From IMG/VR virus record IMGVR_UViG_3300050821_000359, positions 3,265 through 67,264 of that record: a stretch of 64,000 nucleotides of DNA. One strand, 5' to 3'. The stretch comes from a virus. Shown here one piece after another: positions 3,155 to 62,715 of this stretch (position 1 is the first letter of the stretch; each line of letters begins with the position of its first letter). A program made the translations under genes and the position numbers. The notes beneath the pieces were generated by a model that was given only the letters and a program-made list of their open reading frames with translations, had not been told where the DNA came from and ran no database searches.

Positions 3155-3514
3155 ATGTTAACAGAACTTGATAGTTACGATTGGGCGGAAGTATTCGGTG
3201 AAGGTGGTGGCGGCAACTGCGAACCTATTATCCCTAACCGTTTAATTAATGGTGTACTAACCCCTGAACCTACTTTCTCTCGTGAAGATGTAGTAACCAT
3301 TAAGGGACAAGTAGAAGGCGAGAGAGACGAACAGAGTTGGGTTGTCTGGGGCCAATTAAAAGACGGCAGATTCTTTGTCGCTAGAGGTTGGTGCGATTAC
3401 ACAGGATGGGACTGTCGAGCAGGTAATTCTGGTGACACGTTTCCTACTGAAGATGAACTAATCCGATATGGTATGGATACCAATGAACGGTTACGGTTCG
3501 GCTTAGAGTTATGA
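3155..3514 (+). CDS. hypothetical protein
   Basis: Coupled ORF; GWCDYTGWDC motif. Confidence 0.6.
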   Translation: MLTELDSYDWAEVFGEGGGGNCEPIIPNRLINGVLTPEPTFSREDVVTIKGQVEGERDEQSWVVWGQLKDGRFFVARGWCDYTGWDCRAGNSGDTFPTEDELIRYGMDTNERLRFGLEL

Positions 3515-31016: not shown

Positions 31017-31090
31017 TGGAGCCGAAGTCAGGAGTCAGACCTGAGATTACTGTTTACAAGACAGGGGTTTTATCGTTAAACTAATTCGGC
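31017..31090 (-). tRNA. tRNA-Thr(UGU), atypical T loop
   Basis: GCCGAA/TTCGGC acceptor, CTGT-CTTGTAA-ACAG anticodon arm, TCAGG-TCTGACT-CCTGA T arm, encoded CCA. Confidence 0.8.
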
Positions 31091-31594: not shown

Positions 31595-31668
31595 TGGCAC
31601 CGGGGCAAGGTAACGATCCTCAGTTTGAAGGGTCAAAGCCTTCCGTTTTACCATTAAACTAACCCGGT
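31595..31668 (-). tRNA. tRNA-Gln(UUG), atypical T arm
   Basis: ACCGGG/CCCGGT acceptor, GAAGG-CTTTGAC-CCTTC anticodon arm, encoded CCA. Confidence 0.8.
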
Positions 31669-31671
31669 ATT

Positions 31672-31746
31672 TGGTGGAGAATGAGAGAATCGAACTCTCA
31701 ACTTCGGCTTGCAAAGCCACTATTTTCCCGTTAGAACTAATCCCCC
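31672..31746 (-). tRNA. tRNA-Ala(UGC)
   Basis: GGGGGAT/ATTCTCC acceptor with G3:U70, TTTGCAA loop, GAGAG-TTCGATT-CTCTC, ACCA. Confidence 0.93.
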
Positions 31747-58642: not shown

Positions 58643-59590
58643 CTAGATTTTCACTTTCACCTTGACACTAGAGTAGATTTTATCCAAAGGAAGTCCGTGC
58701 ATAGGATTGCCAGAAGGCGCACCAGTCGTTCCTTCAGAGTTATTAAAGGTTGGGAAAGAAACTTCCACTTCTGTTGCACCTAGAGCAAGTGCTGTTAGCA
58801 ACCCGGTAGACGACACCGAAGCAACTGCTGTACTTGTCCCAGAAGGTTGATAGGTGTTACCAGTCAACGTCTTAGAAGGATAAACCACATAAGTAAGCTG
58901 ATTAGTCCCGCTCTCTTCTGAAGTAGCAGTAGCAGCATGAGTCTCTGCGATTGCATCTGGGTTTGCCAAAGTTAGCGTAGTTGTGCTAGAGGCAGTAGCA
59001 ATAAACGTACCGTTATTAGTAGGATTAGTTACAAATCCGGCAATCGTAAATCCTTGTCCTGCTAGCGCGTTCGATCCGCCACCTGTGATAGTACCAGTGT
59101 AAACAGCAGTACCTTCCTGAGCCGAGGCGGTGCCTGCATGTGTCTCAGCAACCGCATTAGCATTCACCAGAGTCAGTGTAGTCGTGCTAGACGCTGTAGC
59201 AGCAAATAATCCGTTATTAGCAGCGTTGGTAAATCCTGCAATAACAAACGTGTAGCCCTTGAAAGCATTACTTCCGCCACCAGTAATAGTACCGGTGTAA
59301 ACAGAGTGAATGCCGTCAGTAGTAGCAGCAACCGAAGTAAGAGTTAAAACACCGACTGTCGATGCCGCAACGGATGTAAGCGTCAACGCAGACCCGGTGT
59401 CAACCTGTGCGTTAGAAACATCCACAATTTGTGGATTTAATTGAAAAGTTGTAGGATAGTCAACACCAGACAACGAAAGGATGATCGTGTTCTTACCGGG
59501 AATAGTACTCCCGACAGGGTATTGTGGATCATTGCCAGTCGTTAAAATCTTAGCAGCTACGCCTAAACCTGTAGTAGCATTAAAAGCCAT
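58643..59590 (-). CDS. virion decoration protein with internal duplication and Ig-like motif
   Basis: Two copies of VYTGTITGGGSNA..G..F.IAGF...NNG.F.ATASSTTTLTL.N; VASVSSTGLLTA. Confidence 0.65.
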   Translation of the reverse strand: MAFNATTGLGVAAKILTTGNDPQYPVGSTIPGKNTIILSLSGVDYPTTFQLNPQIVDVSNAQVDTGSALTLTSVAASTVGVLTLTSVAATTDGIHSVYTGTITGGGSNAFKGYTFVIAGFTNAANNGLFAATASSTTTLTLVNANAVAETHAGTASAQEGTAVYTGTITGGGSNALAGQGFTIAGFVTNPTNNGTFIATASSTTTLTLANPDAIAETHAATATSEESGTNQLTYVVYPSKTLTGNTYQPSGTSTAVASVSSTGLLTALALGATEVEVSFPTFNNSEGTTGAPSGNPMHGLPLDKIYSSVKVKVKI

Positions 59591-59603
59591 TTATAATCTC
59601 CTA

Positions 59604-60104
59604 TTAACCTAAGTAGCTAACACGCGCACTAACTGCATAGGCCAGTGCCGTACCGCTTCCTGCGGCGTAGCTTGTTGTTGCAACCACGATTGTTCCGCCA
59701 GCAGCAACGCTTACTCTAAATGTACCTTGGTTGACCACACCGGCAGCACTGACCGAAGTCACATCTGCAAGAGTGTCAGTAACCGAAGTGTTAGACGCTG
59801 CATCCGTGTACACAACTGTAATTGCGGGAAGTGTCGCACCCGTAGGTGTATTAGTAGAAACTTCATAAAGCGAAACTAAATACATACCTGCCGCTTGCGC
59901 GGTAAAAGTAAGCACGTTCGCGTTATTAGCAGTCTGCGCTGTTAAACTAGCTGCTCCTGCTGTACCTGTCGCCGGAACCCACCCATTGCCTGCGCTGATA
60001 TAGAGAGTCGAATCGACTGTATCTACACCTAAAGCGGCATAAAGGGGCGTATTACCTGCGGCGATGGTAGAAGGTTGTCCTTGAAAAATTCTATCAAAAG
60101 CCAT
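59604..60104 (-). CDS. putative capsid decoration protein
   Basis: A/T/G-rich beta protein close downstream of MCP; AAGGAG RBS. Confidence 0.55.
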   Translation of the reverse strand: MAFDRIFQGQPSTIAAGNTPLYAALGVDTVDSTLYISAGNGWVPATGTAGAASLTAQTANNANVLTFTAQAAGMYLVSLYEVSTNTPTGATLPAITVVYTDAASNTSVTDTLADVTSVSAAGVVNQGTFRVSVAAGGTIVVATTSYAAGSGTALAYAVSARVSYLG

Positions 60105-60148
60105 TATTCTCCTTGAAATTGCGCTATTCGCGCTTCTAACTATAAACT

Positions 60149-60174
60149 AAAAAGGGAGCGGTTTAGGCTCCCTT
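60149..60174 (-). terminator. terminator at the end of the HNH gene
   Basis: GGGAGC-CTAAACC-GCTCCC-TTTTT. Confidence 0.6.
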
Positions 60175-60786
60175 AGTTTCTAGCATTTTAGCTAAATCTT
60201 TTATAACTTCCAGTCTTTTAAAAACGGATTCATCAGAAACCTGACAACCATTAGCTCTGGACATAGAAGCTCGCATCCAACCATCTAGTGTAAATTTTGA
60301 CTTACTTGTTTGACAAGACATATAAGGACTTTCAGGACTACTGGAACAGCACGGAACTAAATTTCCGGGAATATGCCCCTTGGAAGAATCTAGCCTATCT
60401 AATCCCCATACTTTTCCAGACAAGGGAAACAACCCGCAATACGCGCAAGGTCTTGGATTCCCACTATCATCCAAAAAATAATGAATAGCCTCAGTAGGAT
60501 TGTTAAATCCAAACTCACGGCTTTCCTGCTTATCCGTCCATTTCATGCCTAAATATCTCTTTCTAAGTACAGGATAGTACCCATTAGACATATTTTTAGC
60601 TTTTTGCGAAAACCGCATACCTTCTTTAACATAGGAAGGTAGACTGCCGTCTTTTCTCCAATCAGTTGCCCAATCTTCGATTGTACCGGCTGAAATTCCC
60701 GTTCTCTGGACAATTTCTTTATATGATCTTTTCTTAATTAGTAATTCTAAAACTTTATTTCTGATTTCTATCGGATGTGCTTTCAT
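60163..60786 (-). CDS. free-standing HTH + HNH-like homing endonuclease next to the MCP introns
   Basis: N-terminal HTH; CAYCG, GLDRLDSSKGHIPGNLVPCC. Confidence 0.8.
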   Translation of the reverse strand: MKAHPIEIRNKVLELLIKKRSYKEIVQRTGISAGTIEDWATDWRKDGSLPSYVKEGMRFSQKAKNMSNGYYPVLRKRYLGMKWTDKQESREFGFNNPTEAIHYFLDDSGNPRPCAYCGLFPLSGKVWGLDRLDSSKGHIPGNLVPCCSSSPESPYMSCQTSKSKFTLDGWMRASMSRANGCQVSDESVFKRLEVIKDLAKMLETKGA

Positions 60787-60792
60787 TTAATT

Positions 60793-60821
60793 ACTATATC
60801 ACACTTTTGGTGAAAAGTAAA
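60793..60821 (-). promoter_or_regulatory. promoter for a probably leaderless HNH mRNA
   Basis: TTTACT-17 nt-TATAGT with TGn extension; ATG 6 nt downstream, no RBS. Confidence 0.55.
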
Positions 60822-60843
60822 GGGGATAGACTGGCTACCCCCT
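60813..60843 (-). terminator. terminator directly after the spliced MCP stop codon
   Basis: AGGGGGTAG-CCAGT-CTATCCCCT-TTACTTTT. Confidence 0.7.
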
Positions 60844-60848
60844 GAGAT

Positions 60849-62141
60849 TTAACTGATTGCGCTTGCGGCGTCAATCTCGCGGATACGGCACATTTGTTAA
60901 AAGTTTATTCAACTTTACTAAGTCATTTCTGCTTAGTTCTTATAGTTGTTTTTCCTATAAGGTCGGACTATCGCATCATCTTTGCTAAGATGTTATCTCG
61001 CTTAGTCTCTCACGGTCCCTTGCGGGTTCCGCCTTGTTGGCATTTCAGCGTTCAAGTCAATCAGAGATAATTTAACTACGACCTGTATGTTATTGATTAT
61101 AAACAAGTTAATCGTAGTATCTGGCCCAAGGCTAGTCGTGAAATGTACACGATAGCTCGTCCCACACTTGGGTAGATAAACCGGTCAGACGAATTATTAA
61201 CCGGGAATGAGTCCTTCGGGATCAGCAACGGTAGGTTCAGCATTTTGCACGATATTGCACTTAATGTTCTGCCATGCCCCGTCACCAAAACCAGTATCAC
61301 CCTGAGCACCAAGCTTAATCGAGAAGATACCGTCACGACCAAAGATATAAGTACGCAGAGCAGTTAAGCCTGTCACACTCTTATAATTGGTTGTTTGAGT
61401 AACTTGGTTCGTCTGGAAGAAGTGAACACCAGTCGAAGGAATTTCGATCATTTCGGTCAGATCAGTCGATAGCAAGTCTTCCATGCGAGCAAGACCCACA
61501 GGAGTGTGCTTCAAAATGTCGATAGGAGCATTATTACTATTATCTGCTAACACGTCACCTAAAGCGAAAGGATGTATGACGCCACAGAATGCCTTAGAAG
61601 CCTCATCAAAAGGTCTAACCGAACGGCCAGCAAGACTCTGAACCGAGTTACGAATCTGAGTTAGACTCAAAGTAGTAAACGCGGTTGTCGAAGTCGCTGC
61701 AAGCGAAGTTAGAACCGAACTATCAGTAGCACTCGCACCGTCAGCAGTTGCACGGACAAGACCACTAAGAGACTCGCCAAGACGGTATGCAAGTTCACGA
61801 GCAACATTCTCAACAGTGTTATCAATAGCTGTTGCTAAGGATAGGCTGGAGAAGTTTGCATAATCAGCATATTCACCGATGGTAGCAGTGGTTGTTAGAA
61901 CGTTAATAGAGATACCTGCACCAACAGTACCTTCAGAAACTTGAGTAGTATTTGCCGCAAAGGGCACATACATAAACATCTCATATTGATTACCACTTTT
62001 CATTGGCAAATCAAGACGTTCGGAACAAGCTACGAAAGGAGTCTGTGCTTTTAGATTTTCTCTAAACTTTTTATCATAATATCTAACCGTACTCTGAGGT
62101 AGGTTAGACTGTAGGTTACTAGCTGGACTATAATTAGCCAT
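60849..62141 (-). CDS. major capsid protein (N4-gp56-like), three exons: 62141-61199, 61162-61111, 60888-60849; 344 aa spliced
   Basis: YYDKKF...LP.KSG, EG, GEYADY, IHP motifs; joined exons read ADPEGLIPG-W-TSYRVHFTTSLGPDTT-I-RIREIDAASAIS*, followed by a terminator. Confidence 0.85.
60889..61110 (-). ncRNA. group I self-splicing intron (222 nt, no internal ORF)
   Basis: P1 ACTACGAT/GTCGTAGT with U.G at the splice site; P3 TTATCTC/GAGATAA; P7 GACTA/TAGTC; P8 CATCTT/AAGATG; three P9 hairpins; terminal G; P10 ATACAG/CCGTAT. Confidence 0.92.
61163..61198 (-). other. 36-nt core-less group I-like mini-intron
   Basis: AATAATTCGTCTGACCGGTTTATCTACCCAAGTGTG; creates in-frame stops; IGS pairs with both exons; ends in G; removal restores GGT-TGG (Gly-Trp). 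Confidence 0.8.
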
Positions 62142-62206
62142 TAGTTTCTCTTAAAAGGATTTTCAATTCCTCCAAACTAAAAATCTGTCCTTTGTCGTCA
62201 GCCTTG

Positions 62207-62294
62207 CCAGTAATCCGACTGGTAGTTTCTGATCTAGTTAAGACTTCAACTAGATAACCTCACGAAATTGGTTTGCAGTAGTAATCCGACTACT
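62207..62294 (-). promoter_or_regulatory. twin AGT-CGGATT-ACT hairpins in the MCP leader
   Basis: AGTAGT-CGGATT-ACTACT (62294-62277) and CCAGT-CGGATT-ACTGG (62222-62207), with a TCTAGTT/AACTAGA hairpin between. Confidence 0.6.
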
Positions 62295-62715
62295 AGCTAA
62301 GATTATTTGATTGTTTTACCATGACCAAAGCATGTTGATCGGGGTAATAATAATCCTTTTTAACATCTGTTACTCTATATCCTATGTCGAAATATAGTCT
62401 TTGTGCAGGATTTTCCATGTGGACTAATAGACCGAATGGGAGTCCTTTATAAAATTCTTCAATCTTTTGCAATAACTGCGTTCCGATTCCTTTGCCTCTG
62501 TGGGCGGGAGTTATCGCAATGTTGTAAATGTGTACCTGACTATTAACAATTATGGACACTAAGAATCCGACAACTTTGTTGTCAACTTCTGCAACTAATG
62601 TGCGTCCTTTATGAATTTCTGCCAATAGTCCTACATTTGGCTGTGGTCTATCAAAAGATTCTTTATTAATCCTGAATATTGCCTCTATGTCTTCATGGCA
62701 ATACTCCCTAATCAT
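62293..62715 (-). CDS. RimI-like GNAT acetyltransferase
   Basis: VVGFL, HIYNIAI.PAHRGKGIG..LL, V...N.AQRLY...GY, YY. Confidence 0.88.
   Translation of the reverse strand: MIREYCHEDIEAIFRINKESFDRPQPNVGLLAEIHKGRTLVAEVDNKVVGFLVSIIVNSQVHIYNIAITPAHRGKGIGTQLLQKIEEFYKGLPFGLLVHMENPAQRLYFDIGYRVTDVKKDYYYPDQHALVMVKQSNNLS

Follow-up and report, generated by a model that had tools for sequence, protein, structure and literature searches.

Organization of the capsid gene

The stretch of DNA under study, hereafter the window, comprises 64,000 nucleotides (nt) of the IMG/VR virus record IMGVR_UViG_3300050821_000359 (positions 3,265 to 67,264), and the present work concerns a 36-nt insert, here called the mini-intron, together with the complete group I intron that follows it in the gene of the major capsid (head) protein. 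This gene lies on the minus strand, so that window positions decrease from 5' to 3'. It was recognized from an open reading frame (ORF) of 314 amino acids (aa), 62141-61197, which is 85% identical to the major head protein of Tunturiibacter phage Tunturi_3 and also matches the major head protein family phrog_1357 (E = 3.8e-16). The window belongs to a phage related to Tunturi_3. The Tunturi_3 head protein has 343 aa, and its last 29 residues are coded in the window as two pieces located past the apparent stop codon of the ORF.

The gene is made of three exons and two introns. Exon 1 (62141-61199), delimited by the ORF, the homology with Tunturi_3 and an RNA joint that starts from 61199, ends at U61199, and the apparent stop codon TAA (61199-61197) straddles its boundary with the mini-intron. 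The mini-intron (61198-61163) was positioned by RNA joints and homology; it is without a catalytic core and ends with G61163. Exon 2 (61162-61111) has 52 nt and codes for 17 residues identical to those of Tunturi_3. It is followed by a full group I intron of 222 nt (61110-60889), hereafter the partner, identified by RNA joints and covariation of its core. Exon 3 (60888-60849), which includes the stop codon 60851-60849, was defined by the spliced frame and by the RNA joint arriving at 60888.

Excision at the RNA level

The splice boundaries were fixed in two ways, by homology with the uninterrupted gene of Tunturi_3 and by RNA contigs, and both agree. When the exons are joined in frame, the resulting C-terminus is the same as that of Tunturi_3, and the Trp codon of uninterrupted relatives is recreated across the first junction. 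For the RNA evidence, we compared the region 60100-62200 with contigs from three soil metatranscriptome runs, belonging to three studies, and from one DNA run, from which the window itself may derive; parts of the window without RNA cover, for example inside the intron, were left out as evidence. In each of the three metatranscriptomes we observed one contig that joins 61199 to 61162, skipping 36 nt, and 61111 to 60888, skipping 222 nt, and the 52-nt exon 2 is retained in all three. One RNA contig, of 1026 nt, fits the window with 0 mismatches and continues into the ORF downstream of the capsid gene. The contigs of the DNA run showed no joint at either site and read through the region unjoined. 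Since the exons are joined in the three RNA runs and unjoined in the DNA run, the mini-intron leaves at the RNA level; it is real and is excised at exactly 61199/61162. Ribosomal bypass of the insert is ruled out by this result, and an intron-less DNA variant is made unlikely.

A preliminary description of this locus, made from the letters alone, had pointed out that joining 61199 to the distal site 60888 would skip the 52-nt exon and shift the frame. This arithmetic is right, and no such joint was found among the RNA contigs of the three runs, though contigs can miss rare forms.

The partner and its intron family

The P1 5' strand of the partner (61117-61111) is the end of exon 2, which finishes in U opposite G; the guide lies at 61082-61076 and the intron ends in G (60889). 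Within it we placed P3 (61070-61064 with 60999-60993), P7 (61007-61003 with 60970-60966), J7/9 (60965-60961) and P8 (60992-60989 with 60980-60977). RNAalifold, applied to 45 relatives, found P3 (7 base pairs, bp), P4, P6 and P8; of the 21 pairs predicted, 14 show compensatory changes. Covariation supports these four helices, among them P3, in which six of the seven pairs show pair-keeping changes on both sides. The P7 strands are near-invariant, being the same in 26 of 27 cores, and in the remaining core both strands changed together. The 3' strand of P3 (P3') is located between P7 and P8, which is the pseudoknot of group I introns, and the partner has the canonical P3-P7 core.

The group I model of Rfam gave no match at E up to 10 on 60850-61250 or on 59000-62500, and none at the gathering score on 12 related loci holding many intron copies; a blastn search of GenBank phages with the 222-nt intron was likewise without a match. 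With a strict two-motif pattern of the core, at least 120 IMG/VR stretches were matched, and 200 profile matches were obtained in related loci. These loci or lineages, designated here by L-numbers, were gathered by searches with the capsid protein, the core motif and the pattern of the Gly|Trp site. The partner (60889-61110) and its counterparts in loci L083-L202 form a large family of phage group I introns unseen by Rfam. Contigs of other organisms in the DNA run match the conserved core at 60996-61067 and lose the similarity beyond it, so that several further members of the family are present in this soil sample.

The mini-intron keeps the substrate part of a group I intron

Both splice sites of the mini-intron are of the group I type. 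At the 5' site, the last six bases of exon 1 (61204-61199) pair with 61186-61181 in a 6-bp P1 that ends in a U.G pair, and the RNA joint is exactly there. At the 3' site we observed the terminal G (61163) and a 7-bp P10, formed by the first seven bases of exon 2 (61162-61156) and by guide bases 61193-61187, which directly precede the P1 3' strand in the internal guide (61193-61181). A catalytic core P3-P9 with its guanosine-binding P7 is absent, and no partner strand for it is present inside the element; because just 18 nt follow P1, the mini-intron cannot hold such a core. It is not a self-contained group I intron.

The pairing of the internal guide is also seen by covariation. In five orthologous short mini-introns inserted at the same site as that of the window, P1 cells are 100% paired and P10 cells 97% paired, and over all scored pairs 93% of the cells are paired, compared with at most 48% when the partners are slid. 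Four pairs are changed on both sides, with two of the six P1 pairs and one P10 pair among changes of this kind; this result was equalled by 1 of 500 shuffles.

The tail of the mini-intron pairs with exon 2

The tail of the mini-intron (61179-61167) starts with a hexamer (61179-61174) and carries the 5' strand of an additional helix, here called Pt, supported by duplex energy, folding and covariation. In the window, 61178-61174 pair with 61122-61118 and 61172-61167 pair with 61130-61125, the two 3' segments being in exon 2. To score Pt, the tail minus its terminal G was paired with exon 2 minus its P10 part, and 300 shuffled tails were treated in the same way for each case. The duplex of the window reaches -13.5 kcal/mol, which none of the 300 shuffled tails attains. 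Over 12 short mini-introns the energies are between -9.9 and -23.6 kcal/mol, and for 10 of them no more than 1 of 300 shuffles matches the real tail.

The position of Pt is constant with respect to the partner. Its exon site ends 2-9 nt before the 5' splice site of the partner, whether the exon has 35 or 81 nt, and its exon side ends where the P1 5' strand of the partner begins; P1 of the mini-intron, Pt and P1 of the partner are therefore three adjacent helices.

Compensatory changes are found along Pt; in its second half the bulge lengths differ, and the changes were consequently read from the duplex of each sequence and not from common columns. The third base of an Asp codon differs in L204 and L281, and the facing tail base changed to match. 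The tail base that faces the third base of a Pro codon is a different one in each of the window, L126 and L281, matching every time, and forms a wobble in L203. In the Leu-Gly part, two positions differ between the window and L203, both compensated, and L217 and L222 differ by one compensated pair. With these changes Pt, like P1 and P10, is established by covariation.

We also folded, without constraint, the stretch from exon 1 to the guide of the partner. The minimum free energy (MFE) structure contains three consecutive hairpins, corresponding to P1 of the mini-intron, Pt and P1 of the partner, in 7 of 8 lineages (z-scores between -2.0 and -5.4). The same three hairpins are present in the MFE structure of L281 and absent from that of L286. 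For the window, a fold constrained to contain Pt has an energy of -38.1 kcal/mol compared with -38.2 kcal/mol for the MFE structure, and the pair probabilities of Pt are about 0.45.

Related mini-introns and their association with a catalytic core

Among 80 IMG/VR relatives of the capsid protein, the C-terminal region is uninterrupted in 76, has a mini-intron and a full intron in 3 and is unresolved in 1; among 80 metagenome loci, many of which are the same contigs as in the IMG/VR set, 70 are uninterrupted, 7 interrupted and 3 unresolved. Altogether we measured 20 mini-intron lineages of 34-98 nt, located at seven sites in the last 45 codons of the capsid gene. All of them finish in G, with a P1 (6-9 bp) that ends in U.G and a neighbouring guide engaged in a P10 of 4-7 bp; the short elements, of 34-46 nt, have no core. 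The lengths at the Gly|Trp site make up a series (34, 36, 36, 37, 39, 40, 40, 62, 71, 83, 94, 97 and 98 nt), and in the long forms the hexamer region pairs with a complement inside the element. Elsewhere in the comparison, the mini-intron of L120 resembles the first ~45 nt of the full intron present at the same site in L105 (sequences compared by eye). This likeness and the length series support the earlier proposal that the mini-intron arose from a full intron by deletion.

The last ~45 codons of the capsid gene are a hot-spot of introns, with at least 10 insertion sites carrying full, intermediate or mini elements (window 60849-61330 and the homologous parts of L012, L085, L105, L120, L141, L150, L189, L217, L281, L286 and L290) and with up to three interruptions per allele, for example in L085 and L150.

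Mini-introns are constantly accompanied by a full core. With the core profile, a full core was found to start 57-108 nt past the 3' site of the mini-intron in all 15 lineages with enough contig, and L281 and L286 also have core partners downstream, which brings the count to 17 of 17. Three other mini-intron lineages are cut by the contig end, and one of these, L205, has a partner in the identical lineage L209. Full introns without mini-introns do exist, for example in L190 and L112.

The search was then widened to other genes: for 166 distinct cores, the preceding 260 nt were examined for the combination of P1, P10 and a tail-exon duplex. There were 26 candidates, compared with 4 in control regions, and two of these four repeat a real one. 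Of the 26, 13 are known mini-introns of the capsid gene, 6 are new short elements (33-46 nt) located elsewhere and 7 are longer and unverified. Among the new short candidates, excision removes a stop codon or a frameshift in L098, L181, L104 and for a second mini-intron of L150, which matches the N-terminus of the capsid protein by homology; five of the six fold into three hairpins. A generic genome-wide scanner for P1 and P10 was unspecific, with 244 versus 100 raw matches and 43 versus 36 after a frame filter. In the window, an 84-nt scanner candidate at 62300-62216 (minus strand), with a 6-bp P1 and a 10-bp P10, lies in the spacer between an acetyltransferase-like ORF and the capsid gene; it may be due to chance.

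Proposed mechanism and alternative explanations

We propose, with a probability of about 0.62, that the 36-nt insert is a remnant, no longer autonomous, of a group I intron, excised with the help of the downstream core and tethered by Pt. The mini-intron keeps only the substrate parts, that is, a P1 hairpin with the U.G 5' site, the adjacent P10 guide and the terminal G, and its remaining 12-18 nt, antisense to the 3' part of the 52-nt exon, form Pt. Acting as a tether, Pt would hold P1 of the mini-intron at the point of entry of the partner's own P1 into the core. The core of the partner (P3-P9, with the G-binding P7) would then dock P1 and P10 of the mini-intron and perform both transesterifications, the neighbour being in this way the probable catalyst. 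Excision of the mini-intron could take place before the partner splices, or after it, as the guide of the freed intron can rebind the same exon bases. Pt is lost with the excised mini-intron, and it could therefore also impose an order of splicing or suppress exon skipping. The preliminary description had supposed that the mini-intron docks on the ribozyme by base pairing. A pairing that sets its P1 beside the ribozyme is indeed found; the strand with which it pairs is exon 2 and not P3.

The version with P3 holds that the hexamer displaces the P3 5' strand of the partner and pairs with 60999-60993, so that P1 of the mini-intron replaces that of the ribozyme. What was seen in the sequence is correct: the hexamer is a perfect copy of the first six bases of the P3 5' strand (61070-61064), both are complementary to 60999-60993, and the hexamer follows P1 as P3 does. 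A run of at least six bases identical to the P3 strand is present in 413 of 20,000 composition-preserving shuffles of the 18-nt tail (about 2%), and the window has 40 copies of the hexamer itself, both strands included; the match is real and somewhat unlikely, but six bases picked out after the fact could, taken alone, still be due to chance. We therefore turned to the relatives, extracting the P3 strands of the partners by alignment for 15 mini-partner pairs. Only the pair of the window has a run of six or more bases, and the other 14 share 2-4 bases, no better than 235 non-cognate pairs. The hexamer evolves independently of the partner P3: the mini-introns of L085 and L203 keep it despite two compensated P3 changes in their orthologous partners, in L204 and L281 it changed in step with the facing exon codons and not with P3', and mini-introns at other sites have no P3 copy in their tail. 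Duplex energies of the tails with whole partner introns revealed no cognate-specific pairing, the cognate ranking 2 to 13 of 15. Moreover, the core needed for the reaction would lose its own P3-P7 pseudoknot by such a swap. We consider it very unlikely as a docking mechanism; on these comparisons, the hexamer belongs to Pt, and its match with P3 is a peculiarity of the window phage alone. The same description had noted that both introns end in G-T-G (61165-61163 and 60891-60889) and that an A-C, which might pair with them as P9.0, lies behind the P7 3' strand (A-C at 60963-60962, P7 3' strand at 60970-60966); the letters and positions are confirmed. Among mini-introns and partners most end in U-G, and about 9 of 15 pairs are in agreement at the informative position (counted by eye).

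It is also conceivable, at rather low odds, that the catalyst acts freely in trans, being the excised neighbour or another intron of the phage, and that Pt serves for ordering, against exon skipping or for shaping the 3' site. Engineered group I ribozymes are able to excise internal segments in trans, according to PMC4094466 and PMC2532722, phage relatives often have two or three cores per locus (42 of 146 core-bearing loci), and exon skipping between tandem group I introns is reported in PMC10136302 for Twort orf142 and Coxiella 23S rRNA. However, each mini-intron has a core within ~110 nt downstream, and Pt always ends at P1 of the partner, even with an exon of 78-81 nt, two facts that are hard to explain if position did not matter. 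In addition, the partner is the only core of its family in the 67-kb record of the window, but this record is only 70% complete. Less probable again than the strand swap is a cut-and-rejoin reaction in which an endonuclease and a ligase, proteins of the phage or of its host, recognize the structure of the insert. Nothing speaks directly for it, apart from a tRNA splicing ligase mentioned for Tunturi 5 in PMC11924767; the conserved features are those of group I exon alignment (U.G, contiguous P1/P10 guide, terminal G) and not a bulge-helix-bulge, and the strict company of a ribozyme core would be left unexplained. Lowest of all we place the possibility that the mRNA retains the 36 nt and the ribosome passes over them, as in T4 gene 60, or that the joined contigs come from an intron-less DNA variant. 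A Gly codon does precede the insert and is followed by two stop codons, in a hairpin, another Gly codon precedes the point of resumption, and contigs of RNA libraries can contain DNA. Nevertheless, the 36 nt are absent from the RNA contigs of three studies and present in the DNA run, a bypass would drop the conserved Trp codon that splicing recreates, and the two Gly codons (61202-61200 and 61163-61161) differ in their third base, so that take-off and landing do not match. Mini-introns at other sites have 34, 35, 37 or 40 nt and are without matching take-off and landing codons. As for a DNA variant, the nearest uninterrupted relatives are at most 92% identical to the window, compared with the 0 mismatches of the RNA contig.

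Several points weigh against a partner-catalyzed, Pt-tethered excision, which nevertheless remains our preferred explanation. An excised ribozyme could act in trans, leaving Pt another purpose, and the catalyst is a probable one, proposed from RNA contigs and sequence comparison, contigs being unable to show splicing intermediates, order or rare isoforms. Since the Rfam model recognizes neither the partner nor its relatives, we assign it to group I by topology, covariation and splice-site rules. The statistics of Pt are weak in L217, L150 and L286 (12, 23 and 14 of 300 shuffles, respectively); Pt cannot be separated from internal structure in the forms of 62-98 nt and is not part of the window's own MFE structure, by 0.1 kcal/mol. 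Many mini-intron lineages are related, and the independent cases are perhaps 8-10. The wider scan covered the regions upstream of cores, so that a mini-intron without a partner would have been missed, and the generic scanner was too unspecific to tell whether such mini-introns exist.

The downstream ORF and other features of the window

A free-standing ORF of 207 aa (60786-60163, minus strand) resembles phrog_1035, 'endonuclease VII' (E = 1.1e-9). It is located behind the stop codon of the capsid gene and not inside an intron, and it is on the same spliced RNA, since one contig runs from 60258 across both joints. In Pfam, its only match was a helix-turn-helix below the cut-off, and nuclease domains were absent at E of 0.01 or better. 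Behind the capsid gene, homologues of this ORF are present in 5 of 17 other mini-intron lineages and in 1 of 80 IMG/VR capsid relatives; they are found mainly in intron-bearing alleles. In L290, a full intron of the capsid gene contains an ORF that is 62% identical to it, indicating that the same endonuclease-like gene is found both inside and outside introns. On sequence grounds, this ORF would fit a homing-type mobility of the intron cluster.

The full intron of L290 (870-1745; also present in L291) has ~880 nt, interrupts a Tyr codon after Trp-Thr-Ser and carries the ORF in its 3' part. In L157 (4400-4740), the end of the capsid gene is uninterrupted; ~100 nt further on there is a full core, followed by a second C-terminal piece with its own stop codon. 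Possibly the intron was displaced or bypassed here and the last exon duplicated. The window also contains four tRNA genes (Rfam tRNA, 46-65 bits) at 721-795, 31020-31090, 31598-31668 and 31675-31746.

Comparison with known systems and significance

Group I introns are textbook examples of self-contained ribozymes, and in phages self-splicing members are known from T4 (td, nrdB and sunY) and from Twort (orf142). The mini-intron shares with them the U of the 5' exon paired with G in P1, the adjacent P10 guide, the terminal G and the excision at the RNA level, and the 222-nt partner has the same P3-P7 pseudoknot core with P4, P6 and P8. Unlike these introns, the mini-intron is without P3-P9, with neither guanosine binding nor a catalytic fold, and its tail is antisense to the downstream exon; in addition, neither it nor the partner is recognized by the Rfam model.

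In T4 gene 60, a gap of 50 nt is bypassed during translation. As in that gene, we have here a short, stop-containing insert in a phage gene near a homing-endonuclease-like gene, with a Gly codon and then a stop in a hairpin; the difference is that this insert is absent from the RNA, which is splicing and not ribosome hopping. The degenerate group III introns of Euglena plastids are shrunken elements that have lost their catalytic parts, the missing functions being supplied from elsewhere. They resemble the mini-intron as non-autonomous derivatives and differ from it in intron class and chemistry, and we know of no tether to a neighbouring complete intron in their case.

Tandem group I introns around a very short exon are described for Twort orf142 (23 nt) and Coxiella 23S rRNA (34 nt) (PMC10136302), and two elements of group I type likewise flank a short exon, of 52 nt, in the window. 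In those systems the two introns are each a complete ribozyme, with exon skipping as the documented interplay. In the window one of the two elements has no core, all RNA contigs retain the exon, and a dedicated helix connects it with the first element. Engineered trans excision-splicing ribozymes and 'spliceozymes' (PMC2532722, PMC4094466) offer the other comparison: a group I core removes an internal segment that is not part of the ribozyme and joins the flanks, as the partner would do. The engineered ribozymes, which are laboratory constructs, carry the guide themselves, whereas in the window, which is natural, the P1/P10 guide is in the excised segment and the same transcript would also supply the ribozyme, as an intron. 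Full-text searches, covering main texts and chiefly journals outside subscription, brought up nothing on group I mini-introns without a core, and the word 'intron' occurs 0 times in the main text of the Tunturi paper.

On balance, we lean slightly towards the existence of a natural class of substrate-only group I introns (33-46 nt), which would have shed the whole ribozyme and would recruit a complete neighbour intron by an antisense tether to the shared exon, so that the neighbour would work as a multiple-substrate, spliceosome-like ribozyme. Such mini-introns occupy seven or more sites in one capsid gene and apparently occur in other phage genes too, and they may persist because they still interrupt the target sites of homing endonucleases.

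The underlying phenomenon is of more interest than the hexamer itself. For the annotation of phage genomes, stop-bearing inserts of 33-46 nt make gene callers truncate capsid genes, the ORF apparently ending 30 codons short in the present case, and a large intron family is invisible to Rfam. As a design rule for the tethering of substrates to group I cores, the P1-Pt-P1 arrangement can be tested directly. If our proposal is true, these phage mini-introns would be the first natural counterpart of the engineered trans-excision ribozymes and would provide a living model of the step from self-splicing to a shared splicing machine.

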